The notes under the pieces: generated by a model
What the model saw: only the letters and a program-made list of their open reading frames with translations
What the model was told of the DNA's origin: nothing
The model's database searches: none
Program-made: the position numbers and the translations under genes
Assembly (NCBI GenBank): GCA_011772645.1
Contig: WVZE01000001.1
Span: forward strand, 17,888 to 81,887
Direction of reading: 5' to 3'
From: Candidatus Aenigmatarchaeota archaeon
GTDB lineage: Archaea; Aenigmatarchaeota; Aenigmatarchaeia; QMZP01; QMZT01
DNA: 64,000 nt
Shown here: positions 584 to 61,540 of the stretch, piece after piece
How the letters are laid out: the number at the start of each line of letters is the position of its first letter
Numbering within the stretch: the stretch's first letter is position 1

Positions 584-1153
584 CTATCTCTGGGTTTTCT
601 CGAATCTCGGAACGAATAACCTGTATTTGTCCTTGTCTTCCAGTTCCTCTAGAATTCTCTTTATGATCATCTTCTCCGGGTCGGGAAGCATGGTTACGCG
701 CTTCTTTAGGTCCTCGAAGGATCCGAAGGGCTTCTCCTTTTTGGCAGCTATTATCGCCCACAAATGTTTTTTCCCTATCCCAGGGAGCAGCTCCAGCTGG
801 TGAAGGCGTGTGGTTATCGGACCGGCGTTGTTGAAGAATTCCAGGAATTTCTTTGGTTTTGTTTTTACCAGGTCTTCAACTATGTCCGAGACCTCCTCTT
901 TGGAGGCTCCCGTCAGGTCCTTGAAATCGATCCTTCTCTTTATGAACTTAACCTCATCCCTTTTTCCGTCTCCTATGTAAACGCGCGATCCAACTTTTAA
1001 GTGAATCCCGTCCCTGACTATAACTTCAAGTAAGGAAAAGTATTCCTCTCCCAGAACCTGCGCAACAGGCTGGGAGATTCGCATCCCGTAGTAGCCGTGC
1101 GGAAGATAGTCTAAAACTATCGCCCACTCGTCCTTTTTAAGATCCTTTTGCAT
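584..1153 (-). CDS. DUF655-family nucleic-acid-binding protein (OB-like N-terminus plus helix-hairpin-helix)
   Basis: It has the HhH-like motif 'LELLPGIGKKHLWAIIAAK'. It sits in the conserved archaeal L21e-Rpo4-DUF655 neighbourhood. Confidence 0.7.
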   Translation of the reverse strand: MQKDLKKDEWAIVLDYLPHGYYGMRISQPVAQVLGEEYFSLLEVIVRDGIHLKVGSRVYIGDGKRDEVKFIKRRIDFKDLTGASKEEVSDIVEDLVKTKPKKFLEFFNNAGPITTRLHQLELLPGIGKKHLWAIIAAKKEKPFGSFEDLKKRVTMLPDPEKMIIKRILEELEDKDKYRLFVPRFEKTQR

Positions 1154-1197
1154 GCTACCAGCCTTGATTATAAGATAGAATTCAGCTTTATAAGTTA

Positions 1198-1524
1198 TTA
1201 TCTGTTATCCTTGACTGTCTTCAAAATCTTCTTTTTATCCTCGTCCGTCAAAACCACCCTTTCGTTTGCGAACAGTATTCTCACATCATCCAAATTCTCC
1301 GGTAAGAAGTTCAGTATGTTCACTATGTGTTTATCTTTCAGTTTCTCGATTTTTTTCAGTTCCTCTACGATTTTCTCTGCCTTTGACTCCGGTATTTTGC
1401 AGAATTTTCTGAGGTGTTCTAACGCGTTTTTCTGCTCGTAACCCAGTTCCTTCTCCTTCTCCTTTTTCATGAGTATCTTTTTGACCTCAATCCAGCTTAT
1501 CGCCTTCTCGTCATTCACTTCCAT
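1198..1524 (-). CDS. rpoF: DNA-directed RNA polymerase subunit Rpo4/F
   Basis: 108 aa. 'GYEQKNALEHLRKF...IVNILNFLPENLDDVRILFANE' resembles archaeal Rpo4. It lies between L21e and DUF655, as in many archaea. Confidence 0.75.
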   Translation of the reverse strand: MEVNDEKAISWIEVKKILMKKEKEKELGYEQKNALEHLRKFCKIPESKAEKIVEELKKIEKLKDKHIVNILNFLPENLDDVRILFANERVVLTDEDKKKILKTVKDNR

Positions 1525-1541
1525 GCAACCACCTCGCTAAA

Positions 1542-1832
1542 TTATTTGGATTTGGGGATTAGATGTTCGGGTCTTGCTATTATGTTCTTGGTCTTTTTTC
1601 CGACCTTGAGCTCGACCACGTAAGATCTCCCTCTCCTTTCCTTGATCTTTCCTGTCCTTCCCTCGAATACGGGATCCGGGAATCCTCTCTGGGAGGAAGG
1701 GTTCAGTTTTATTACAACTCTGTCATTGATTTCGAAAGCCTGAAGGTAGGGAGCAACCTTGAATTTATCCTTCCTTCCTCTCTTCATTTTACTTCTCGTT
1801 CCTCTCCTCATTCCCCTGCTCTTCTTGACCAT
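1542..1832 (-). CDS. rpl21e: 50S ribosomal protein L21e
   Basis: 'MVKKSRGMRRGTRSKM...FPDPVFEGRTGKI...YVVELKVG' is a typical eL21 sequence. The track ORF extends 4 codons upstream (to 1844); the start at MVKK is preferred. Confidence 0.9.
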   Translation of the reverse strand: MVKKSRGMRRGTRSKMKRGRKDKFKVAPYLQAFEINDRVVIKLNPSSQRGFPDPVFEGRTGKIKERRGRSYVVELKVGKKTKNIIARPEHLIPKSK

Positions 1833-1836
1833 TTTT

Positions 1837-3030
1837 TCACACAAATATCTTTACGACATCGAACTGTTTTAACTCACCCGGGTTTTCAAGGATCTCCGAG
1901 ATTGATGGTTTCGTCCTTCTCTTGTCACCTGAGACGAGCTCGTTTATGTACAAACCCGATTCGGTTCGAACTTCGAATTCGTAAATTTTTGTATTTATCT
2001 TTTTCCATTTAATACTTTTAACCTTTTTGTGCCTGAGTTTGTCTGGTTTGCTTTTCAAAAGCCTTCTCGGGGTTTTCTGTTTCACAACCCCCACTATTTT
2101 TCCAACCCTTTGGATATCCCTGACCGGGTTTTCGAAATTAACTCTTAACCTGTAGACCTTCTCGACCTTTTTCCTCTTTATTTCAACAATTTCCTTTCTC
2201 GAGGAGTATCTCAAATTCCTGACCTTTACCATCTTTCCCCTGTTTATCTCCCTTTCGATAATTTTCAGATTTATCCTCCTTTTAAGGGGCTGGTTGATTT
2301 CAAGAACGAAGGGCCTCCACGCCAGACATTTAGCCTGCCTGTCCTCCCTCCCGCATGCATGCATTGTGTGGGAGGAGGCTCTCGTGGTTTTCATTAAAGG
2401 TTTTGCTATGATGTCCTCAACGGTTTCATGTCCTTTCATCTTGGTCTGCGGAATGCCCCTCACAAGTTTTCTGTATTCTCCGTAAACGTATACCGGGTTG
2501 ATCAGGGTCTCTATTTGTTTGTTTTGCAGGTCAAGCAAAACTATAATCTCCGGTCTGTTCTCATCAGGGATCTTGCCTGTTTTTTTCTCTACCAGCTTTC
2601 CCAGTTCCCTGTTCAGTTCTGATTTTATGGGTTCGCAGTAAGCGATTCCTGATTTCTCCCAGAGGGATTCCTCTGCCATCGCGAGGGCATCATTCATTTT
2701 CACGCCAACCATGAAACTCTTGGAATCCATTTTTTTCAGTATCTTTGCCGCCTGGTCTGCGAATTTCGGAAGCTCCTCGAAGAGATTCTTACAGACCACG
2801 CAAATTCCGGGCTTCCTTGTTTTCATCTTCCTCCTGAACGTGAAACCGTGGAAATTTGAGGTATCCAGTTTGAAGGGTTTCGCCTCGTACTCCATCGCCA
2901 GTAACCTCCTCACGATCTCCCCCCTCTGATCGTTCGAGTAACCGCTAAGTAATTTTGCGAACTGCCTTCCGAGACAGTGATCGCAAACGAAACCTAAATT
3001 CATAATCTTTATTGCATTTTCCTTAATCAC
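1837..3030 (-). CDS. pus10: tRNA pseudouridine(54/55) synthase Pus10
   Basis: 397 aa. It has the N-terminal zinc motif 'CDHCLGRQF...CVVCKN' followed by a THUMP-like and catalytic domain. It shows archaeal Pus10 synteny with L21e. Confidence 0.8.
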   Translation of the reverse strand: MIKENAIKIMNLGFVCDHCLGRQFAKLLSGYSNDQRGEIVRRLLAMEYEAKPFKLDTSNFHGFTFRRKMKTRKPGICVVCKNLFEELPKFADQAAKILKKMDSKSFMVGVKMNDALAMAEESLWEKSGIAYCEPIKSELNRELGKLVEKKTGKIPDENRPEIIVLLDLQNKQIETLINPVYVYGEYRKLVRGIPQTKMKGHETVEDIIAKPLMKTTRASSHTMHACGREDRQAKCLAWRPFVLEINQPLKRRINLKIIEREINRGKMVKVRNLRYSSRKEIVEIKRKKVEKVYRLRVNFENPVRDIQRVGKIVGVVKQKTPRRLLKSKPDKLRHKKVKSIKWKKINTKIYEFEVRTESGLYINELVSGDKRRTKPSISEILENPGELKQFDVVKIFV

Positions 3031-3051
3031 GTTCTCACGTAGAAATTATGT

Positions 3052-3807
3052 TTACCTTATTTTTAAATCAAAAACCCCGATCGCGTTCCTTTTTGCGGCT
3101 TCAAGAACCTCTTCCTTAGAGATCCTCCGTATCTCCGATATCTTCTCCGCTGCCAATTTTATGTTCCAGGGATAGTTCCTCGGGTCCTTATCCTTGTACG
3201 GGGACAGGAACGGGGAATCGGTTTCGAGGAGGATTTTGTCTAAGGGAACGTCCTTCGCGATCTTGCGGATATTCTTGGAGAAGAGAACCTGGGTCGAAAT
3301 CGAGATGTGGAATTCACGGGAAATTATCTCCTTCGCGAGATCCCTCTTCCCAGAGAAACAGTGAAATACACATTTCGCATTTGAATCCTTTACCATCTCG
3401 TAACATTCGCTCTCAGCGTCCCATGAATGGATCACCAGGGGTTTTGAAAGTTTCTCTGCGAGATCTATAAATTTTGAAAATATCTCCCTTTGTTTTTCGT
3501 GTTTTGCCGGATCCTTCTCCCAGTGGTAGTCCAGTCCCGCTTCCCCAACGCTCACGATCTTCTCCCTGTTCTTCCTTATCAGGTCCATTATCCTTTCCGG
3601 GTCCTTCCCGCCCTCAACAGGGTGGAATCCTATACTCGGAAAAATAAAGCCAGGGTATTTCTCGGCGAGGGAAAGAACCTTCAGTCCCTCGTCATAGCGG
3701 GCAGAACTCGCTATCACTCCTGACAATTCCTGCTTGCATTTTTCTATGATCTGGTCCAGATCCCTTTCATAAGACTTCCAACACATGTGCGCGTGAATAT
3801 CGATCAT
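3052..3807 (-). CDS. tatD: TatD-family metal-dependent hydrolase/DNase
   Basis: 'MIDIHAHM', 'GEAGLDYH', 'VIHSWDA', 'FHCFSG' and 'LLETDSPFL' are the canonical TatD motifs. Confidence 0.9.
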   Translation of the reverse strand: MIDIHAHMCWKSYERDLDQIIEKCKQELSGVIASSARYDEGLKVLSLAEKYPGFIFPSIGFHPVEGGKDPERIMDLIRKNREKIVSVGEAGLDYHWEKDPAKHEKQREIFSKFIDLAEKLSKPLVIHSWDAESECYEMVKDSNAKCVFHCFSGKRDLAKEIISREFHISISTQVLFSKNIRKIAKDVPLDKILLETDSPFLSPYKDKDPRNYPWNIKLAAEKISEIRRISKEEVLEAAKRNAIGVFDLKIR

Positions 3808-3871
3808 AAGTGTTTATAATGGGTTTATTTTATAAAAATTGTTATTTCCAAAGTAAAATTTTCGAGTCTAT

Positions 3872-4231
3872 TTACAACCGTATACCAGTGTATTGGTATA
3901 ACACTGAAGCAGGCTCATCGATGAAATATTTTCTAAAGAAATTGATTTTATCCCCATGTCTGGCACGATATATATGATACAGTTCATGTTTGGCTATTCT
4001 TCTAAAATTTTTGGGATTTTTGAAGCTTACAGGATTAAACTGTACATATAAGCTTCCATCTTCATCATTAACTGCCATTGTAGAATATTCATTGAAGAAA
4101 AGCCACCAGTGCTTTAAACTTTCATAGTATTCGATGGGGGGTGGATTTAAGAATTTGACTTTAATAGGTGGTAATTTCAATCTTTTTCTTTCTTCTTCAA
4201 AAATTTTTCTTAATTCTTTTTTTATAACCAT
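3872..4231 (-). CDS. Hypothetical small protein with an HExxH motif (possible minimal zinc metallopeptidase-like protein)
   Basis: 119 aa, containing 'AKHELYHIYRARHGD' (HExxH). The gene and its flanks are visibly more AT-rich than the neighbouring genes. I recognise no family. Confidence 0.4.
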   Translation of the reverse strand: MVIKKELRKIFEEERKRLKLPPIKVKFLNPPPIEYYESLKHWWLFFNEYSTMAVNDEDGSLYVQFNPVSFKNPKNFRRIAKHELYHIYRARHGDKINFFRKYFIDEPASVLYQYTGIRL

Positions 4232-4261
4232 ATCAATTAAATACTGACTTAATTTTAAAAA

Positions 4262-5092
4262 TCATCCCTCAGCCAAGAAATAATCCATCGCATCCTCTAT
4301 CGTTCTCACCTCGGCCACCTCGATCCCCACTTCCTCTGAGATGCTAACCTCTGTGGGTATATTTTCTGTGGTGCATATCTGGGAGATTCCGATCTGTTCG
4401 CAGTATTTCTTTGTTTTGTACGTAACTTCCTTGGAATGCAGGAGGGGGACAAGTAGGATTTTCGCTCCAGCTTCCTTCGCAGCTTTTGCTTTCGGCAGGA
4501 TCTCGCCCACGGGCCCGATCGTTCCGTCGTGGTTTATCGCGCCCGTTATCATGACTTCGGGATTCAGTTTCTCTTTCTTAAGGGCCGCGATCGTGGCGAT
4601 CGTTAGGGCGGCTCCTGCAGAAGGTCCTTCCACCGCCGTGGCCTCTGTTTCAATGGTGTATATCACGTCGTAATCCGAGAGGTTGATTCCTGTGATGTTC
4701 GAGGCGACCTTTGTGGATGTTCGAATCGAATTTTGCGTGTCCGTCCAGAACAGGAGCCTGTCTATGTTTGCGAGGATTTTACCGGAGCCGGGAACTATCT
4801 GGACGCTTAGAACGGTTGTCAATCCTTCCCCTTCCTCGTCAACAGCGGGAACCACGATCGATGAGGAGGAGGCGTTTTCCGAGATGTATGGAACGTACGT
4901 CACGACGTTCGCGGGCCTTGTCTGGTTGTAATTGATAATAATGACCTCGTTCATTCCCCCTATGTAATATCCCAGAAAGTATGCGATTGCCATTAAAACT
5001 ATGAGGGTTGTTGTTTTGACTCCCCTGTATCTGCGGGATTCCCTGCGCATATTCATATAATTGTTTTTGAACTTATAATTGCTTTGGTTCAA
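4262..5092 (-). CDS. Membrane-anchored S16 (Lon C-terminal proteolytic domain) serine protease
   Basis: It has an N-terminal TM helix ('TTTLIVLMAIAYFLGYYIGG'). The Lon protease domain motifs are 'EGPSAGAALTIATIAAL' (catalytic Ser) and 'ITGAINHDGTIGPVGEILPKAKAAKEAGA' (catalytic Lys). Confidence 0.75.
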   Translation of the reverse strand: MNQSNYKFKNNYMNMRRESRRYRGVKTTTLIVLMAIAYFLGYYIGGMNEVIIINYNQTRPANVVTYVPYISENASSSSIVVPAVDEEGEGLTTVLSVQIVPGSGKILANIDRLLFWTDTQNSIRTSTKVASNITGINLSDYDVIYTIETEATAVEGPSAGAALTIATIAALKKEKLNPEVMITGAINHDGTIGPVGEILPKAKAAKEAGAKILLVPLLHSKEVTYKTKKYCEQIGISQICTTENIPTEVSISEEVGIEVAEVRTIEDAMDYFLAEG

Positions 5093-5109
5093 ACCAACCG
5101 GATTAAAAA

Positions 5110-5392
5110 TAGTGGTAGGAACACGCCATCAGTGGATGCTGATCAACCAGAAGGTTTATCCACAATCCCTCCTCCACTCCGCTACCCTTCAAGCGTTGTT
5201 AATATAACTTAGGGCTGCCACCTTCCGGTTCTGACCCGGTTCATCACATTAAAAACCCTGAAGGACAGAGCTTCTCAGTTGGGAATATGGGCCTTTTGGT
5301 TTCTCAGTATCGCCTTTAGGCTTCGACTCCGTCATGAAGGCGGTTTACGGTTACAGGAGACGCCTGACCTCCCAGTCTAGTCCCTACCATCT
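5110..5392 (-). ncRNA. Signal recognition particle RNA (archaeal 7S/SRP RNA)
   Basis: The minus strand reads 'GGGAGGTCAGGCGTCTCCTGTAACCGTAAACCGCC' (5'/Alu-like domain). It also reads 'GGGTCAGAACCGGAAGGTGGCAGCCCTAAG', the helix-8 region with a GGAA tetraloop (compare 4.5S 'GGTCAGGTCCGGAAGGAAGCAGCC'). The 5' 'GGTAGGGAC' can pair with the 3' 'GTTCCTACC'. A TATA-like 'TTTTAAA' lies about 25 nt upstream (5412..5418) and an oligo-T follows the 3' end. There is no credible ORF in this 360-bp gap. The ends are approximate (+/-10 nt). Confidence 0.85.
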
Positions 5393-5452
5393 TTCTCTTG
5401 TAAATGCGTATTTAAAAGTTTATTTTTATGAAACCGAAACGAATAATTTAAT

Positions 5453-6331
5453 ATGTTATCATTCTACAAGAAACTGGCGCTGACCTTTTTTGGAGGTGTT
5501 GTTGACAGGTATATAGACTCCTTCAGGCCGCTTGAACCGCACATAAAAAATGCAAACATGAAGATTCTGTTGAAAACGTGGGTGTCTCTCATAATCTTCA
5601 CGAGTATCATGCTGTTCCTCATAACGTTCATTTTAACCTATGTCGTTCTCACCTTTTTCATACAGGTTGAGTTCTACATCTACATTTTCACAACAATATT
5701 CCTGCCCGTTTTTGTTGCGTCTGTCGCTTTCATAATTTTCTATCTTTACCCTGTACAGAGAGAAAACTCGAGAAAGAACAGCATAGAGAACAACCTTCCA
5801 TTCGCCACAACCCACATGGCTGCCATCGCCTCTTCAGGCATCCCGACCGAGTTTGTGTTTGAACTGCTGATGGGTTTTAAAGAGTACGGGGAAATAGCAG
5901 AGGAATCGAGACTTATAATGAGGAACATAAAAACTTTTGGAATGAGCAGCGTGGATGCGATAAAGAACGTCGGCGACAGAACACCTTCCCAGGAATTCAG
6001 GGAACTGCTGCTGGGAATCGTCTCGACAATAGAAACCGGGGGGAACCTCATACAATACCTGAGGGAGATGTCCGACAAGGCGTTGTTCGATTACAGGATC
6101 AAGAGGGAAAAGTACCTGAAGACTCTTTCCACTTATGCGGATATCTATACCGCACTTCTTGTCGCAGCTCCCTTGATGATGCTTGCATTGTTGGCAACCA
6201 TGAGCATAATAGGAGGTCAGGTCCTGGGTCTGGGCATACAGGATGTCATGCTGCTCATAACGTGGTTGGTATTGCCAGTACTGAATATCTCTTACCTTGC
6301 TTTCATACACGTAACATATCCGGGGATGTGA
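5453..6331 (+). CDS. Type II secretion system F-domain membrane platform protein, first of two (FlaJ/TadB/EpdJ-like)
   Basis: 292 aa and polytopic. The cytoplasmic region 'NLPFATTHMAAIASSGIP...' followed by C-terminal TM helices is typical of a T2SSF domain. Confidence 0.75.
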   Translation: MLSFYKKLALTFFGGVVDRYIDSFRPLEPHIKNANMKILLKTWVSLIIFTSIMLFLITFILTYVVLTFFIQVEFYIYIFTTIFLPVFVASVAFIIFYLYPVQRENSRKNSIENNLPFATTHMAAIASSGIPTEFVFELLMGFKEYGEIAEESRLIMRNIKTFGMSSVDAIKNVGDRTPSQEFRELLLGIVSTIETGGNLIQYLREMSDKALFDYRIKREKYLKTLSTYADIYTALLVAAPLMMLALLATMSIIGGQVLGLGIQDVMLLITWLVLPVLNISYLAFIHVTYPGM

Positions 6332-53784: not shown

Positions 53785-54981
53785 ATGGCTCAAATTTCTC
53801 TCAACGAGATATTTCAGGGTTATGTTGGAAGGAGAGGCGTGTTCAAAAACAAAGAAACACTATCAATAGCATTCACACCGGACAACATACCACACAGGGA
53901 GGAACAGATAAAACAGTTGGGTATGATCTTGGCTCCGGTGTTGAGAAAGGAGAAACCATCGAACGTTTTTATTTATGGGAAAACAGGGACAGGGAAATCG
54001 TTGTGCGCGAGCCACACAATAAAAAAACTCAGCGACCAAACCAACGGGAAACTGAAAACCATATACATAAACTGTAAGATGAGAAGGGTTTCGGATACAG
54101 AGTATCGCCTGCTCTCACAACTGATATCCTTTTTTGGCGTTGAGGTTCCCTATACCGGCCTCCCCACGGACAGCCTTTATAAAAAGTTCTTTAATCTCTT
54201 GGACCAAGGAGAGGGGAACACCCTCCTGGTTTTGGATGAAATAGACGCCCTGGTCAAGAAGGTTGGTGACGGTATACTTTACAACCTAACGAGAATTAAC
54301 CAAGAACTCAAAAAAACCAAGTTAACGATAGTGGGAATATCAAACAACATATCCTTCATCAACGACATGGACCCGAGGGTTAGATCTTCCCTTTCAGAGG
54401 AAGAGGCCGTCTTCCCGCCCTACAACGCCTCCGAACTGAGAGACATACTCACCGAGAGATCACAGCTTGCGTTCAACCCGGGCACGGTCTCCTCGGGAGT
54501 GATAGAAAAATGTTCTGCCCTTGCCGCGCAGGAACACGGAGACGCAAGGAAAGCGCTTGACCTCTTAAGGGTTGCCGGGGAGGTCGCGGAAAGGATGGGG
54601 AACGAGAAGGTTTTGAAGGAACACGTGGATCTTGCGGAAAAGAAACTGGACACGGACAAGACGCTGGAAATAACCAAAACTCAGCCAAGGCAGTCTCAGT
54701 GCGTTCTCCTTTCCATACTCGAGCTCTTCCGCAAGGGAACGAAGAACACACAGACAGGCGACATCTACGATGTTTATATCCAGATATGCAGAAGGAACAA
54801 TTTGAAGGTTCTAACGCAGAGAAGGGTTTCGGATCTAATTTCCGAACTGGATATGTTCGGGATCGTAAATTCAAAGGTCATCTCCAAGGGAAGGTACGGA
54901 AGAACAAGGGAGATAAAGCTGAATCTTTCGGGTGAGATGATAACAAGGATTGAAAACTTTTTGAAGGAAGAGTTTATTTAA
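53785..54981 (+). CDS. cdc6: Orc1/Cdc6 replication initiator
   Basis: 'PHREEQIKQL', Walker A 'GKTGTGKS' and Walker B 'LVLDEID' are present, with sensor motifs and a C-terminal winged helix. A TATA-like 'ATTTAAAC' lies 23-30 nt upstream, suggesting a near-leaderless transcript. Confidence 0.9.
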   Translation: MAQISLNEIFQGYVGRRGVFKNKETLSIAFTPDNIPHREEQIKQLGMILAPVLRKEKPSNVFIYGKTGTGKSLCASHTIKKLSDQTNGKLKTIYINCKMRRVSDTEYRLLSQLISFFGVEVPYTGLPTDSLYKKFFNLLDQGEGNTLLVLDEIDALVKKVGDGILYNLTRINQELKKTKLTIVGISNNISFINDMDPRVRSSLSEEEAVFPPYNASELRDILTERSQLAFNPGTVSSGVIEKCSALAAQEHGDARKALDLLRVAGEVAERMGNEKVLKEHVDLAEKKLDTDKTLEITKTQPRQSQCVLLSILELFRKGTKNTQTGDIYDVYIQICRRNNLKVLTQRRVSDLISELDMFGIVNSKVISKGRYGRTREIKLNLSGEMITRIENFLKEEFI

Positions 54982-55003: not shown

Positions 55004-55900
55004 ATGAACAAAAAAGACATGGTGTCCGTTTTCTTGAAGGAAGGCGTGCTCGTCACACCGGATCTGCTGGAAAGGATCAACGAGGAAAACTACGAAGAAA
55101 TTTTGATGTCGCTCAAAGAAAAGAAGAAGCCAAAGGAAGAAAACAAACCCAAAAAAACCGCGGAAAGAAAGAAAGAGGCCGGCGTGAAAGATTTTTTAGA
55201 TTACTACAGCAGGAAATACGAGTTTCTCAAAGGGATCTTGTTGAAGAAAATGAATGCGGTCTCCATAAACAAGGGGAAGAAAATATTCTCCAAAACCTCG
55301 ATAATAGGGAGGGTGAAGGAAAAAACCTCAAGGGGATTTGTGATAGAGGATGTTACGGGCGAAGTGGAGGCCGTGACAGAGGGAAAGGGAACGGTGGAGG
55401 GGGACGTGATTGGCCTGAAAGGGTGGTTCAAGGAAGGCGGCTTCTTACCAGAAGAATTTGTTTGGCCGGACATTCCGCTGGCGAACAGGGGAGAACCCCC
55501 GAACTTTCTGTTAACCAGGAAGTTAACCGAAAAAATCAAGGAAAGAAGCGGAAAAGATGTTGTCATCAGTCTGGATTCTGAAGAAATAAAAACTCCAGAT
55601 CCACGCTGGATCGATGTTTCGCACGGAGAGAGAAAAGTCTCTGCCCTTATCCTTAGACCGGAAAACCCCATTGGAGAGGAGGGTTTTATGAATTTTCTGA
55701 AGAGGAGGGAACTTCCGCACGAAAGAAAAGCAGGCATATATACACCCTATCTTATAGAGAAAATACCAAACATAGTCTGGCTTATTGAGAACAAGGGAAA
55801 CTGGACCAAGAATTACAGGGGAGTAATCGTGGTATCAACAGACCATGAGAGTTTTTTCCAATATAAGGAGAACGAAGGGGGTAAATTTGAGAAAATATAA
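55004..55900 (+). CDS. DNA polymerase D small subunit (DP1)-like protein with a truncated, motif-less phosphodiesterase domain
   Basis: The N-terminus 'FLKEGVLVTPDLL' and the OB fold 'SIIGRVKEKTSRGFVIEDVTGEVEAV...GDVIGLKG...WPDIPL' look like DP1. The C-terminus 'FLKRRELPHE...YRGVIVVS' parallels the DP1 'L..RHLAP...YRGV' region. The protein is only 298 aa, and the DxH, GDxxDG, GNHD and GHxH metal motifs are absent. Confidence 0.6.
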   Translation: MNKKDMVSVFLKEGVLVTPDLLERINEENYEEILMSLKEKKKPKEENKPKKTAERKKEAGVKDFLDYYSRKYEFLKGILLKKMNAVSINKGKKIFSKTSIIGRVKEKTSRGFVIEDVTGEVEAVTEGKGTVEGDVIGLKGWFKEGGFLPEEFVWPDIPLANRGEPPNFLLTRKLTEKIKERSGKDVVISLDSEEIKTPDPRWIDVSHGERKVSALILRPENPIGEEGFMNFLKRRELPHERKAGIYTPYLIEKIPNIVWLIENKGNWTKNYRGVIVVSTDHESFFQYKENEGGKFEKI

Positions 55901-55945: not shown

Positions 55946-56620
55946 ATGCTTAAAATACTCCTCATCGCGGACGTTCACGGAGAAATAGAGAAACTCTCCA
56001 GATTTATCAAATCCTTCAGGGAAAGAGATTTCGATCTGGTTTTGTGCCCTGGAGACTTCACGGACATGTTCAACATCCCGGAAGGGTATACGCAGACGGA
56101 CGTTGCGGAAATTGTTCTGCAGAAACTTATTTCATTAGGTAAGCCCGTTTTTTGCATACCGGGCAATCACGAACCCTATGAAATTTTGGAGCTATTTAAT
56201 GAATACGGCGTGAACCTTCACGCGAAATCCAGAAAGTTCAGGGAATTCGAATTCATCGGTTTTGGCGGGGCCACCACCCCCTTCAACACAAAATTCGAAC
56301 CGACAGAGGATGAAATAAGGGAGAGCCTTTGGAGGCTGAAACCACGCTCTAACGGGAGGACTATCCTTGTGACGCACTGCCCTCCGTACGGAACAGTGGT
56401 GGATAAAACAGAAACAGGAGAACACGTCGGCTCGAAGACCATACGGGATTTCATAGAAAAGGAAAAACCAATTTTAGCATTTTCTGCTCACATACACGAG
56501 GCAGGAGGCGTTGATAAAATAGGAAGAACAGTGATATTCTATCCTGGAGCGATATTCAATAACTCGTACGGTTTGGTGACTATAGACAAAGAAGTAAAAT
56601 GCGAAACGAAAAAATTCTAA
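55946..56620 (+). CDS. Calcineurin-like metallophosphoesterase (stand-alone, ~225 aa)
   Basis: All motifs are present: 'IADVHG', 'PGDFTD', 'PGNHE', 'THCPPYG' and 'SAHIHE'. Confidence 0.8.
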   Translation: MLKILLIADVHGEIEKLSRFIKSFRERDFDLVLCPGDFTDMFNIPEGYTQTDVAEIVLQKLISLGKPVFCIPGNHEPYEILELFNEYGVNLHAKSRKFREFEFIGFGGATTPFNTKFEPTEDEIRESLWRLKPRSNGRTILVTHCPPYGTVVDKTETGEHVGSKTIRDFIEKEKPILAFSAHIHEAGGVDKIGRTVIFYPGAIFNNSYGLVTIDKEVKCETKKF

Positions 56621-58687: not shown

Positions 58688-58903
58688 GGAACAGCCTGAA
58701 ATTTCACATGGAATTCACATGAAACACACGAAACCGTTATGCAGCTTACCATATCGGAAATTTCCACAGGAAATGAAGGTGTCCCCCCATTCACATAAAC
58801 TTTCGGAATATTAGATGAAGTTCTTATGTTCAAACTTCACGAGACTTTCGAAATAAAATGAACCAAAATGCTTCACAGTGAAGTTCAAAAACTTCATCGC
58901 TGG

Positions 58904-61540
58904 TTAATAAATCACACGCCTCGCAGGTCCTTGGGGGGAGTTGAACAGAAGCGTCCCCCCGCACTCACAAACCCCCCTGAGCGGCGGAAAATCATAGGTT
59001 TTATAACACTTCTCGCACACGAAACCCTCCATGTACTTGTAATAAACCTCTTTTGCTGCTTTGGCCTTTGAATTATTTGCAAACGCTGTGAACAGGCTGA
59101 CCTGCTTCCCCTTACCAAGCAACTCTGTCTTGGAAATGCCGAGTGCGATGAAAATCCTTTCCAGCGGTGGAAGAAGCTGGTTCTCTATGTAATACCTTGA
59201 ATCTATCGGAAGTTTTTTCTCTATAACGTAGAGAGGGTCTTCCGCTCTCTTGGAAAGAAGTTCTGCCCCCTTAACTATGACGTAACCTATCCTGTCCCCG
59301 ACGCCCGGGCACTCAGCAGGCGAGCGCTTCTTTATCTTCTTGACAAGTTCTGCATGTGGCTGAATCCCCGCATAACCTTCCGCCCTTTTTGTCATGGTCT
59401 TGGTTACTACAAGTTTCTGTATTGGAATCTTTCCCTCAATCATGCTGTCAGCAACGCCCTTAAAGTAATGAACAGCCTCTTTGATGTCGTTCTTCTTCAA
59501 GATTATTTCCAGAACCTTTTCGATGGTTTCCGACGTTAAATCACACCAGTCCCTTCTTACGGTCTCTATACCCTTTGTTTCCATCGTTTCTCTCCAGCCA
59601 TCCTCATCGGATTCAAAAGACCAGGCAGCATACCTCTTCTTTGTGAGCGGAAGGAATCTCTTGAAGGTCTTTTCAAACTCAAGCTCCATAACACCCTTCA
59701 GAACAGAGGTAACCCTTTTTGCTACTTCCTCTCCCGCCTTCTTTATTTCCTCGAGATTCTCGAAAGGAACTTTAACCATAACAGAATCCGTATCCCCGTA
59801 TATAACCTTGTAACCAAAGTCCTTCTCGATAAAGTCCTTTGTTTTCTTGATGGTTTCCCTGCCAAATGCTGTTATGGAATTCGCGATCTCCATTGAGTAT
59901 ACCTTCGCTCTAGGATATCCGAAATGCCCGTAGAATGCATTGGACATGATCTTCAGAGCTAATTCCTCCGCCGCGAGTTCCCTTATCTTACCGGAATCAG
60001 ACTCCTTCTTCATCTTTCCCTTCACCTTCTGCCTCTCCTCCATCAACCTCTCCAGTATCTTTGGTATTATGCCTTTTCGGATGTTTTCCGGGACAAACTT
60101 CGCCCCTGATGGAGAGGTCACGGGTTTCTCCACCCCGTCCTTCATGATCAGTGTCGTCGGACAGATGTTGAACGTCCTTATCAGGGAGGGATACATTGCC
60201 TTGAAGTCAAGGACAATCACTGATGAATGCAAACCCTTCTCCGGTTCCAGGACATACCCCCCTTTCAGTTCAGCCCTTCTCATTTTCTCTCTTTTGGAGA
60301 CCTCGCTACCATCCGGTTTGCAGGGAAGGACAAAATCCTCTTTGTTAAATTCCCTCAGTATCAGATTTTCTATCCTTGTAGTTTCTCCGGAATCCAGTAT
60401 GTCCTGAAGGAGCGTGCCGGAAATCTTTGCTAGAGCCACGTATTTATCCAGAAGGTTCAAATTCAAAACCAGCTTCATCGCCAGCTCCGAGTCTTTCTTT
60501 GAATATCTTATCAGCGACCTGAACTTCTCCTGGCTGCCCTTCCAGAACTTTTCTATCTGCGATTTTTTAACATCCTCCTTTCCCTCCCCCAACAGCTCGT
60601 TCGATACGGTATTCAAATCGTAACGTTTCATGGAGAAATCCCTCTTTATCATTTCGAAAGAATCAACCATCACTCTTCCGGCTATGTTTATTTTAAACCT
60701 GCTCATTATCTGATTCTTAGTTACGTGTTTCTTGCATCTTCCAAACATCGGAGATATGTTATTCTGCCTCATCCTCTCGAGTATGTACGGCATGTCAAAA
60801 TTATTGATGTTGAATCCCGTTATGACGTCAGGATCGTAATCCATTATGATGTTAATCAGTTCCTCTAACATTTCCTTCTCCCCCTCAAAGGGTTTTACAC
60901 CCCTGTCAGATCTTGTACTCAAAACGATCGATCTTTCCCCTTTATGTGGTTCGCTGAAAACAGCAGAGATCATTATTATGGGATCATCCCTGGAATCAGG
61001 CATTTCCCCCTCCTTTAGAGAGACGCATTCGATGTCAAGGCAGAGGAATCTCAGGGGAACCATCCCGTCCTTCCCAATCTTTTTGAAATTTTTAATGGGA
61101 ATTTTCCTCTGCGCGCTTACCGTGTTTGTCGTCACGCCTCCCGAACCATCAACCTCGATCCAGCCCATGCCCGCTAGGTCGAAATCGGCCATGAACCGGT
61201 ATTTGAACGGGATGTCCGCCTCAAAAACCTCAAAACCCCTTGACCTTAACTTGTCCCTGATTTCAGGGGTCTTTGCCGGATTCCTGAGAGTTATCCTGTG
61301 GAGGTCGATCGTTTGTTTTTGGTAACCAATCGGAAGAAACCTCTTAACCTTTTCCACTCTTATCACATTGCCTTCGCCTTTTACAGCCTCTTCGAGCTTC
61401 TCCCCCCTTGCATAGAAATATGGCAGGTAATCCTCGTAAAAACCGCAGACAGTCTCTCCATCCTCTGTCTTGCCGAATATCCTTATTATTGGCTTTTCAT
61501 CAACCATGGTATAGTCCACGTCGAGGATCTGAAAAAGCAT
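58904..61540 (-). CDS. polB: Family B DNA polymerase (PolB) with an extra C-terminal Cys4 zinc-ribbon tail
   Basis: Exo motifs ('CLDIE', 'GFNINNFDMPY') and Pol motifs ('DFKAMYPS', 'KIMSNAFYG', 'YGDTDS') are present. After the usual C-terminus ('YYIENQLLPPLERI...QVSLFTAF') there are about 58 more residues containing 'CEKCYKTYDFPPLRGVCECGG'. Confidence 0.95.
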   Translation of the reverse strand: MLFQILDVDYTMVDEKPIIRIFGKTEDGETVCGFYEDYLPYFYARGEKLEEAVKGEGNVIRVEKVKRFLPIGYQKQTIDLHRITLRNPAKTPEIRDKLRSRGFEVFEADIPFKYRFMADFDLAGMGWIEVDGSGGVTTNTVSAQRKIPIKNFKKIGKDGMVPLRFLCLDIECVSLKEGEMPDSRDDPIIMISAVFSEPHKGERSIVLSTRSDRGVKPFEGEKEMLEELINIIMDYDPDVITGFNINNFDMPYILERMRQNNISPMFGRCKKHVTKNQIMSRFKINIAGRVMVDSFEMIKRDFSMKRYDLNTVSNELLGEGKEDVKKSQIEKFWKGSQEKFRSLIRYSKKDSELAMKLVLNLNLLDKYVALAKISGTLLQDILDSGETTRIENLILREFNKEDFVLPCKPDGSEVSKREKMRRAELKGGYVLEPEKGLHSSVIVLDFKAMYPSLIRTFNICPTTLIMKDGVEKPVTSPSGAKFVPENIRKGIIPKILERLMEERQKVKGKMKKESDSGKIRELAAEELALKIMSNAFYGHFGYPRAKVYSMEIANSITAFGRETIKKTKDFIEKDFGYKVIYGDTDSVMVKVPFENLEEIKKAGEEVAKRVTSVLKGVMELEFEKTFKRFLPLTKKRYAAWSFESDEDGWRETMETKGIETVRRDWCDLTSETIEKVLEIILKKNDIKEAVHYFKGVADSMIEGKIPIQKLVVTKTMTKRAEGYAGIQPHAELVKKIKKRSPAECPGVGDRIGYVIVKGAELLSKRAEDPLYVIEKKLPIDSRYYIENQLLPPLERIFIALGISKTELLGKGKQVSLFTAFANNSKAKAAKEVYYKYMEGFVCEKCYKTYDFPPLRGVCECGGTLLFNSPQGPARRVIY

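Follow-up and report, generated by a model that had tools for sequence, protein, structure and literature searches.

Eukaryotic replicative polymerases all share one architecture, in which a zinc module derived from DP2 tethers a family-B polymerase (PolB) to an inactive version of DP1. The locus examined here raises the question of whether an archaeon assembles its replicase in the same way. The window, a 64,000-nucleotide stretch of an Aenigmatarchaeota genome, encodes a PolB with a cysteine-bearing C-terminal tail as well as a degenerate homologue of DP1, and a preliminary description of this DNA had hypothesized from these two genes a complex resembling that of PolB with its B-subunit.

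An intact polymerase with a Cys4 extension

The polymerase gene (polB, 58904..61540, minus strand) encodes an 878-residue enzyme of the Aenigmatarchaeota B6 type, as read from the open reading frame, its translation, and Pfam matches to DNA_pol_B_exo1 (PF03104, E 1.8e-40) and DNA_pol_B (PF00136, residues 379-798, E 1.2e-109). Both its exonuclease and polymerase motifs are intact, and the residues that make up Exo I-III and Pol A-C do not vary over 39 PolB orthologues. Its best PDB matches, by sequence as well as by fold, are the catalytic subunit of Pol delta (human on top) and then Thermococcales PolB, and its AF2 model reaches a pLDDT of 84.9. In a tree of tailed Aenigmatarchaeota PolBs, a Baldrarchaeia-like PolB (P0164), and canonical PolB, the protein clustered with all of the former and with P0164, apart from canonical PolB; in the published PolB tree, the B6 clade (reference OIN85950) is sister to Pol alpha, delta, and zeta.

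The alignment with Thermococcales PolB chains from the PDB breaks off at residues 816-823 of the window protein, and these chains stop within ~10 residues of there, so that residues 821-878 (nt 58907..59080, minus strand) represent an extension of ~58 residues past the usual PIP-box C-terminus, as the preliminary description had proposed. At the site where canonical archaeal PolBs stop, a PIP-like motif, QVSLFTAF (residues 813-820, 59081..59104, minus strand), can be read from the sequence; Q813 is invariant and L816 almost invariant across the 39 orthologues. This motif, which may bind PCNA, falls inside a low-confidence linker (residues 811-827) of the AF2 model. Residues 829-878 plus the stop codon (58904..59056, minus strand) then form a zinc-ribbon module, the proposed docking site for the DP1-like protein.

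The PolB tail contains the string CEKCYKTYDFPPLRGVCECGG, previously read as CxxC-x13-CxC. The two cysteine pairs of that reading stand, while the spacing between them has to be corrected to 12 residues, giving a core of C842-x2-C845-x12-C858-x-C860 (58961..59017, minus strand; codons at 59015-17, 59006-08, 58967-69, and 58961-63, respectively) that includes the loop YKTYDFPPLRGV, the counterpart of the KxRRxP loop of DP2. This is the only Cys4 motif in the protein, and 18 residues follow its last cysteine. Since the four cysteines and the GG after them show little or no variation over 39 homologues, with tail identity down to 46%, and since the tail profile was matched in 147 of the 151 genomes of the phylum, the motif is not a product of chance. 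The tail cysteines are also invariant across 45 further orthologues surveyed, and frameshifted or deleted tails on an otherwise intact PolB were not seen in any of 45 loci.

Origin of the tail and its relation to DP2

Comparison of the tail profile (A1) with the PDB identified the Zn-III ribbon of DP2 in PolD of T. kodakarensis (6knb_B, residues 1127-1164, E=1e-7) and P. abyssi (6hms_B, residues 1119-1156, E=8e-6). All other matches, including adenylate kinase lids, CTCF fingers, and similar modules, had E > 0.008. A generic zinc ribbon, which the preliminary description had regarded as an equally good explanation, is rejected because DP2 Zn-III is the sole significant PDB match. The spacing of 12 residues between the second and third cysteines is identical in the window tail and DP2 Zn-III, the same profile matches the C-termini of DP2 open reading frames inside the phylum (family f8), and an exhaustive motif search over 1.84e9 representatives found the motif essentially on PolB C-termini and in DP2 only. 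The PolB tail is thus homologous to DP2 Zn-III specifically.

The window tail is a reduced and divergent form of this ribbon. In the AF2 model, it is predicted as a separate beta-ribbon (pLDDT ~80-84) on a disordered linker next to the thumb, composed of beta strands only, and the helical bundle of DP2 and eukaryotic C-terminal domains (CTDs) was not seen in this model. Its last cysteine pair is CxC, with CxxC retained by many sister families among the 45 tails surveyed. The Arg-Arg pair of the KxRRxP loop, retained in 31 of these 45 tails, is D-F in the window (KTYDFP). So short a tail, devoid of the helical part of the CTD, could be taken for a non-functional remnant of recombination between DP2 and PolB. 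We consider this highly improbable: the Cys4 motif and its flanks are invariant across families that share only ~50% identity in the PolB core, and 147/151 genomes keep the tail, which together indicate purifying selection.

The preliminary description had called for a survey of PolB C-termini against the state of DP2 and DP1, and the result agrees with a tail that goes with the absence of PolD. DP2 (PF03833) was found neither in the 775-kb Aenigmatarchaeota genome to which the window belongs nor in 143 of the phylum's 151 genomes, among them the two others from its genus; because the window's own genome is only 78% complete, the absence of DP2 there leans partly on these relatives. Likewise, an intact DP1 of the PF04042 type was not found in this 78% complete genome. 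DP2 was present in 8/151 genomes, and the one family that keeps PolD (f8) has a full-length DP1 and tail-less PolB only. DP2 and tailed PolB are mutually exclusive in the phylum.

The DP1-like protein and the proposed replicase

The proposed B-subunit is encoded by the DP1-like gene (55004..55900, plus strand), which a distance of 3004 nt separates from the polB 3' end, and comprises 298 residues with an N-terminal helical domain, an OB fold, and a phosphodiesterase (PDE) remnant. The NCBIfam DP1 model NF003118 matches it (E 5.5e-16) over residues 50-163 only, and neither PF04042 nor Metallophos was matched in Pfam. When aligned with true DP1, the protein misses ~150 residues and the regions of the PDE metal motifs are deleted or substituted, confirming that a catalytically degenerate DP1 homologue lies 3 kb from PolB. 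Foldseek places P. abyssi DP1 first (1.3e-11), followed by Pol delta p50 and the B-subunits of Pol epsilon and Pol alpha (1e-8 to 1e-6); as modeled by AF2 (pLDDT 83.9), the protein has a DP1/B-subunit fold in which the PDE domain is reduced to a remnant. Most homologues of ~290-300 aa show 36-67% identity, with invariant OB residues, and few proteins in the survey are as short as that of the window (range 272-407 aa). A 224-aa metallophosphoesterase (55946..56620) was considered as a substitute in trans for the lost DP1 nuclease and rejected, as it matched generic Metallophos models and not DP1; its gene adjoins the DP1-like gene only in family f1, and is elsewhere located upstream of orc1 or more distantly.

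The DP1-like gene adjoins orc1/cdc6 (53785..54981, plus strand; NCBIfam NF001625, E 4.9e-147), which lies upstream of it at nearly all surveyed loci. In 29 of the 42 surveyed loci, orc1/cdc6, the DP1-like gene, and the tailed PolB gene follow each other in this order, co-oriented and <200 nt apart. The taxonomic order of the window departs from this arrangement through an inversion of PolB and TctA, such that the DP1-like and PolB genes no longer form one operon. A replacement of DP2 by PolB in situ, within an ancestral cdc6-DP1-DP2 operon, was also considered and rejected: the DP1 and DP2 genes of family f8 are unlinked and neither lies beside orc1, so that the operon position of PolB is not demonstrable as the old DP2 slot.

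We consider it probable that the Zn-III-derived tail plugs into the inactive DP1-like protein to form a two-subunit PolB/B-subunit replicase, and the complex hypothesized in the preliminary description is in this sense supported as a prediction for the window pair. Within this analysis, the prediction draws on the homology between tail and Zn-III, the DP1 fold seen in the proposed partner, the absence of DP2, the mutual exclusion of DP2 and tailed PolB, and the operon linkage in relatives. [quoted passage not shown] 2019, PMC6355029); the KxRRxP loop of DP2 enters an acidic groove formed by the OB and PDE domains of DP1; and both AlphaFold3 models and yeast two-hybrid assays indicate that an Aenigmatarchaeota DP1 binds tailed PolB and not canonical PolB (Nat Ecol Evol 2025, PMC12680538). 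Finally, DP1N binds Gins51 in T. kodakarensis (PMC9023282).

In the proposed mechanism, a reduced copy of the DP2 Zn-III ribbon would have been fused behind the PIP-box end of a proofreading PolB, with C842, C845, C858, and C860 most likely chelating one Zn2+. In the window lineage, the ribbon would insert into the groove that the OB fold of the DP1-like protein forms with its PDE remnant, yielding a PolB/B-subunit pair that would resemble those of Pol delta, alpha, and epsilon in eukaryotes. By means of the PIP-like motif and a disordered linker of ~17 residues, the same C-terminus could also contact PCNA, and the retained N-terminal helical domain of DP1 may tie the complex to GINS/CMG; a GINS homologue is encoded in the same genome.

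Several features of the window lineage count against docking. Asp-Phe replaces the Arg-Arg of the DP2 docking loop; the DP1-like protein is short and most of its PDE domain, the domain that forms half of the docking groove, is gone; the tail as modeled is missing the CTD helical bundle of DP2 and eukaryotes; and the operon of the DP1-like and PolB genes has been lost in this taxonomic order. The loss of Arg-Arg, along with the predicted position of the tail on a flexible linker beside the thumb, would also fit a tail retained mainly as a DNA-contacting zinc ribbon that helps the polymerase to hold the nascent duplex, with no involvement of the DP1-like protein. This seems unlikely, however, given that the DNA-contacting basic residues of DP2 clamp-1 are mostly in the helical bundle that is missing here, that the tail co-occurs and is usually operon-linked with the DP1-like gene and is absent wherever DP2 is present, and that DP1 binding has been published for the group by two-hybrid (PMC12680538).

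The diverged loop, shrunken DP1-like protein, and broken operon of the window's taxonomic order could alternatively reflect a tail that now docks another replisome partner (primase PriL, RPA, or GINS directly), the DP1-like protein being separate or in the course of being lost. An interaction between a DP2 CTD and Heimdallarchaeal PriL has indeed been reported by two-hybrid (PMC12680538). Yet the DP1-like protein is still well conserved and still lies beside orc1/cdc6, and nothing points positively to a different partner, making this alternative quite unlikely. Returning to docking on the DP1-like protein, the OB-fold position corresponding to window G133 is acidic in 29/29 lineages with Arg-Arg vs. 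6/13 others (naive Fisher p = 6e-5), but phylogenetically independent pairs number only 2-3 concordant and 0 opposite (p = 0.25-0.5). This covariation of the tail loop with the DP1-like protein is suggestive only, and was left out of the support for docking.

Virus-like contigs and comparison with known systems

The same tail, with its KxRRxP loop intact, also occurs on four PolBs of ~780 aa (P0116, P0122, P0128, and P0165) encoded on contigs L079-L082. Based on their gene content, which includes ThyX, a thymidylate-kinase-like gene, UDG, a Cas4-like nuclease, and co-directional small open reading frames, these contigs resemble replication modules of viruses or mobile elements. In a tree, the four polymerases share a clade with IMG/VR viral PolBs that have no tail and lie outside the Aenigmatarchaeota B6 clade, and a scan of IMG/VR for tailed viral PolBs yielded 80 loci (<=29% identity) with a tail in 0. 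One tentative and rather doubtful interpretation is that the Zn-III ribbon serves as a portable "DP1 hook" and was joined to family-B polymerases on more than one occasion, in which case archaeal viruses would couple a polymerase of their own to the replisome of the host via its DP1 or DP1-like subunit. Alternatively, the cellular B6 polymerase could derive from such virus-like elements.

The idea that the tail docks DP1 has already been published (2020, 2025). The group B6-aenigma1 was described as Aenigmarchaeota PolBs with a single C-terminal Cys4 motif nearest Zn-III of DP2, a core nearest eukaryotic Pol delta, alpha, and zeta, and hosts without DP2 and with an inactivated DP1 (Kazlauskas, Krupovic et al. 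2020, NAR 48:10142, PMC7544198). The window PolB combines exonuclease and polymerase domains, a Zn-III-like Cys4 motif, a DP2-less Aenigmarchaeota host, and an inactivated DP1; nothing essential differs, and on these features we assign it to this group. Additions of the present work are the conserved operon, the loss of the Arg-Arg loop in the lineage, and the four virus-like contigs with tailed PolBs; the order of orc1/cdc6, DP1-like gene, and PolB, the inversion, and the Arg-Arg loss are not in the text of PMC7544198.

The Baldrarchaeia and Aenigmatarchaeota PolB-DP2CTD proteins (PMC12680538) similarly carry a DP2-derived CTD on PolB, which binds DP1 in yeast two-hybrid assays, in lineages that keep DP1 without DP2. 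Baldrarchaeia have a full-length CTD that includes two Cys motifs along with a helical bundle (cf. P0164), whereas that of the window is a short, degenerate form; the 2025 paper likewise found the Aenigmatarchaeota CTD degenerate and its predicted structure different (PMC12680538). The eukaryote-like PolB/DP1 architecture has been reported for just two lineages of archaea. Aenigmatarchaeota, one of the two, have been used to reconstruct the origin of the eukaryotic replisome, and the window contributes a further well-assembled case. Within the phylum, a before-and-after series can be followed, from family f8 with PolD and active DP1, to most families with the operon and Arg-Arg, to the window's order with a broken operon, Arg-Arg lost, and a DP1-like protein of 298 aa, and this series could help to define a minimal interface between PolB tail and DP1.

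With PolD (CTD/clamp-1 of DP2 with DP1; PDB 6HMS, 6T8H, 6KNB), the window pair shares a homologous ribbon, a 12-residue loop, and a partner made of OB and PDE domains. In contrast, its catalytic subunit is a family-B polymerase rather than a two-barrel DP2, and the five PDE metal-binding motifs of active DP1 are missing from its partner. DP2 also has a 5-helix bundle, a CxxC as last pair, and KxRRxP, where the window has no bundle, CxC, and KTYDFP, and the PIP motif stands after the ribbon in DP2 but before it in the window PolB.

Eukaryotic CTDs carry CysA and CysB at the ends of a helical bundle, while the window tail has one motif, with no CysA and no bundle, and its B-subunit is much smaller than the eukaryotic ones, with no sign of an Fe-S cluster or of further subunits. 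In Pol epsilon, the N-terminal domain of the B-subunit links to GINS. The likeness to Pol alpha (p180C/p70), Pol epsilon (p261C/p59), and Pol delta (p125/p50) lies in a PolB-type subunit, a C-terminal metal module in which CysB corresponds to Zn-III, and an inactivated DP1-derived subunit to which, here, the tail is predicted to bind.

The C-terminal extension of the window PolB

The family-B DNA polymerase of the window (878 aa; open reading frame at 58904..61540, minus strand, with its translation) is covered over residues 104-798 by the Pfam domains DNA_pol_B and DNA_pol_B_exo1, and its core is closest, by both sequence and fold, to Pol delta catalytic subunits and then to Thermococcales PolB. 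Catalytic residues of Exo I-III and Pol A-C do not vary among 39 orthologues, and the enzyme should therefore both polymerise and proofread. Alignments to Thermococcales PolB chains in the PDB, as well as the chains themselves, end at window PolB residues 816-823, confirming that this enzyme continues beyond the Thermococcales-type terminus as stated in the preliminary description. The 58 further residues include CEKCYKTYDFPPLRGVCECGG and the four reported cysteines (C842, C845, C858, and C860), with a spacing of CxxC-x12-CxC rather than the x13 first counted, which was one residue too many. A PIP-like motif, QVSLFTAF, lies at the Thermococcales end point (residues 813-820, nt 59081..59104, minus strand). 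In an AF2 model of the full-length protein (pLDDT 84.9), confidence is low for this motif and the adjoining spacer (residues 811-827), whereas a small beta-ribbon is modelled with confidence over residues 829-878 (pLDDT about 80-84); no helical bundle is seen.

The four cysteines are invariant in 38 homologues of this tail (46-80% identical, several source-named Aenigmarchaeota), within a nearly invariant context, G-F-x-C...PPL-x-G-x-C-x-C-G-G...F-S-S..G. A profile of 49 tail positions, searched against all PDB chains, recovered a single family at significant E-values, namely DP2, the large subunit of archaeal PolD, exactly at its Zn-III motif (Thermococcus kodakarensis 6knb_B residues 1127-1164, E=1e-7; Pyrococcus abyssi 6hms_B/6t8h_B residues 1119-1156, E=8e-6), and the second and third cysteines are separated by 12 residues in both. 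Across 151 genomes of the phylum, the same profile also matches the C-terminus of the DP2 open reading frame in the few DP2-bearing genomes (e.g. G138:C54:562-672, E=4.8e-9). According to PolD cryo-EM work, Zn-III uses a KxRRxP loop to engage DP1 in the groove that separates its OB and PDE domains, and a Zn-III peptide of 20 residues has nanomolar affinity for DP1 (PMC6355029). Taken together, the sequence matches identify the tail as a homologue of a known DP1-docking element, and a generic zinc ribbon, the alternative raised in the preliminary description, is ruled out by DP2 Zn-III being the sole significant PDB family. Searched exhaustively with an HMM, 1.84 billion representative proteins yielded no more than 92 matches. 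Leaving aside a few Cys-rich false positives, these were PolBs in which the motif lies 18-25 residues before the C-terminus, DP2 proteins in which this distance is about 62 residues, and fragments of either. These representatives carry no taxonomy, and for the occurrence of the tail beyond the phylum we rely on the cited papers.

The DP1-like protein and the proposed interface

The proposed partner is a 298-aa DP1-like protein (55004..55900) encoded directly after orc1/cdc6 (53785..54981). An NCBIfam DP1 model matches it over the linker/OB region only (residues 50-163, E=5.5e-16), and alignment to a true 496-aa DP1 indicates that the N-terminal helical domain and OB fold are retained, whereas about 150 PDE-domain residues are gone and no metal motif is recognisable. 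The best structural match of its AF2 model (pLDDT 83.9) is P. abyssi DP1 (1.3e-11), with the B-subunits of human Pol delta (p50), Pol epsilon, and Pol alpha among the further best matches. Neither the DP2 N-domain (PF03833) nor a DP1-type PDE domain (PF04042) was found in the window genome (775 kb, 47 contigs, 78% complete), which encodes a GINS homologue. Directly 3' of the DP1-like gene lies a 224-aa generic calcineurin-like phosphoesterase (55946-56620, plus strand); its homologues occur near orc1/cdc6, upstream of it, in many other families, so that the replication cluster recurrently has this gene as a neighbour, and only in the window's family (f1) does it adjoin the DP1-like gene.

In the mechanism we propose, the four tail cysteines would hold one Zn2+, and the flexibly tethered ribbon would plug into the groove between the OB fold and the PDE remnant of the DP1-like protein, while the PIP-like motif just upstream would bind PCNA. 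The conserved N-terminal helical domain could in turn contact GINS, by analogy with the binding of Gins51 by DP1N in T. kodakarensis and of Psf1 by Dpb2 in yeast (PMC9023282). The Arg-Arg pair in the DP2 loop pattern K-x-[FY]-R-R-x-P-L is kept in 31 of 45 surveyed tails, but the window's genus and its neighbour have K-T-Y-[DNS]-[FIL]-P-P-L instead, and the DP1-like proteins of both are among the shortest surveyed. An acidic OB-fold residue at window position 133, beside the conserved D134, is found in 29/29 Arg-Arg lineages and 6/13 others, an association for which a phylogenetically controlled, underpowered test gave p = 0.25-0.5. The interface may have been remodelled in the window lineage, which is the main reason why our confidence in binding is lower for the window pair than for the group.

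Distribution and gene order in the phylum

The tail was detected in 147 of the 151 phylum genomes, nearly always ending an 880-930-aa frame; the four negatives include one PolB cut at a contig end and one PolB match ending at residue 740, and G140 (family f11, 96% complete), a bin with apparently no polymerase, has no match to the window PolB, tail, or DP2. DP2 was found in eight genomes; seven belong to a single family (f8), and the eighth is G091, where the gene lies on a 3-kb contig. Only the DP2-bearing genomes have full-length PF04042 matches (DP1 of 460-523 aa), while the other families encode DP1-like proteins of 340-440 aa with partial PF04042 matches, and the window's order yielded none. 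In f8 genomes the only PolB is about 770 aa, 31-36% identical to the window enzyme in an alignment ending by residue 821, and groups in the tree with the second, canonical PolB of the window genome (825 aa; contig C16, locus L002, 343-2820), which has no Cys tail and whose C-terminus consists of a PIP-like QRSLDTFM and a basic tail. From these distributions, PolD and the tailed PolB with degenerate DP1 are mutually exclusive in this sample apart from G091 (f11; contigs C64, L003, and C30, L015), in which a tailed PolB fragment and an abutting DP1-DP2 pair reflect either bin contamination or a lineage holding both. Of the outcomes named in the preliminary description as speaking against the proposed complex, neither a tail common alongside normal PolD nor a DP2 gene in the window genome was found. 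Separately, several tailed B6 PolBs exceed the usual length by 400-850 residues, presumably through intein insertions, and keep the tail at the C-terminus (L060, 1339 aa; G022, G064, G106, G116, and G119, frames of 1317-1730 aa; representatives P0096, P0103, and P0105-P0107).

Gene order was surveyed by HMM annotation in 45 loci from 27 families, 42 of which hold both genes. In 29 of the 42, orc1/cdc6, the DP1-like gene (272-407 aa), and the tailed PolB gene follow one another in the same orientation at distances below 200 nt, some of them even abutting or overlapping, with a convergent TctA-family transporter gene downstream. This string, kept in most families, is ancestral. In the window's order (f1, f3, and f4), orc1/cdc6 and the DP1-like gene are followed by TctA and then by PolB in opposite orientation, the arrangement that inversion of the PolB-TctA segment would yield; in f1, a metallophosphoesterase/HTH gene pair additionally separates the DP1-like gene from TctA. 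The 3-kb distance noted in the preliminary description is thus a derived, broken operon, and linkage in relatives independently supports the view that the two proteins are functionally connected. Given this likely inversion, a candidate junction is the 216-nt stretch that separates TctA from the convergent polB (58688-58903), in which palindromes and short repeats of the type TTTC(A/C)CA..GGAA abound. We found no mention of the orc1/cdc6-DP1-like-PolB order in PMC7544198 or PMC12680538.

Virus-like contigs and published PolB groups

Four tailed PolBs of about 780 aa (P0116, P0122, P0128, and P0165), only distantly related to the window PolB, end in the same DP2 Zn-III-type ribbon with the Arg-Arg loop intact. 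Their 5-9 kb metagenomic contigs (L079, PolB at 2317-4707; L080, PolB at 2242-4584; L081, PolB at 807-3158; L082, PolB at 3355-5694) carry small co-directional open reading frames and genes for ThyX, a thymidylate-kinase-like protein, UDG, a Cas4-like nuclease, radical SAM, and LAGLIDADG proteins, a content that resembles a replication module of a virus or mobile element. A quick maximum-likelihood tree without eukaryotic references places the four with tail-less IMG/VR viral PolBs (SH-aLRT 99), apart from B6. No tailed relatives were found in IMG/VR, no DP1-like gene on these partial contigs, and no report of such PolBs in the literature searched; we regard them as a lead, not a finding.

The idea of an archaeal PolB/B-subunit-like complex, put forward speculatively in the preliminary description, is correct in substance, given the Zn-III homology and published binding for the group, and has already been published and partly tested. 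CTD-bearing PolB, but not canonical PolBs, is bound by DP1 according to AlphaFold3 and yeast two-hybrid analyses, and the Aenigmatarchaeota CTD is described as a shorter, degenerate DP2 CTD (PMC12680538, Nature Ecology & Evolution 2025). Kazlauskas et al. 2020 (PMC7544198) defined PolB group B6, described 'B6-aenigma1' CTDs as having a single metal motif whose closest counterpart is DP2 Zn-III, noted that in most Aenigmarchaea DP2 is missing and DP1 is inactivated, and proposed that a B6-aenigma1 PolB replaced DP2. The window PolB is a member of this known group.
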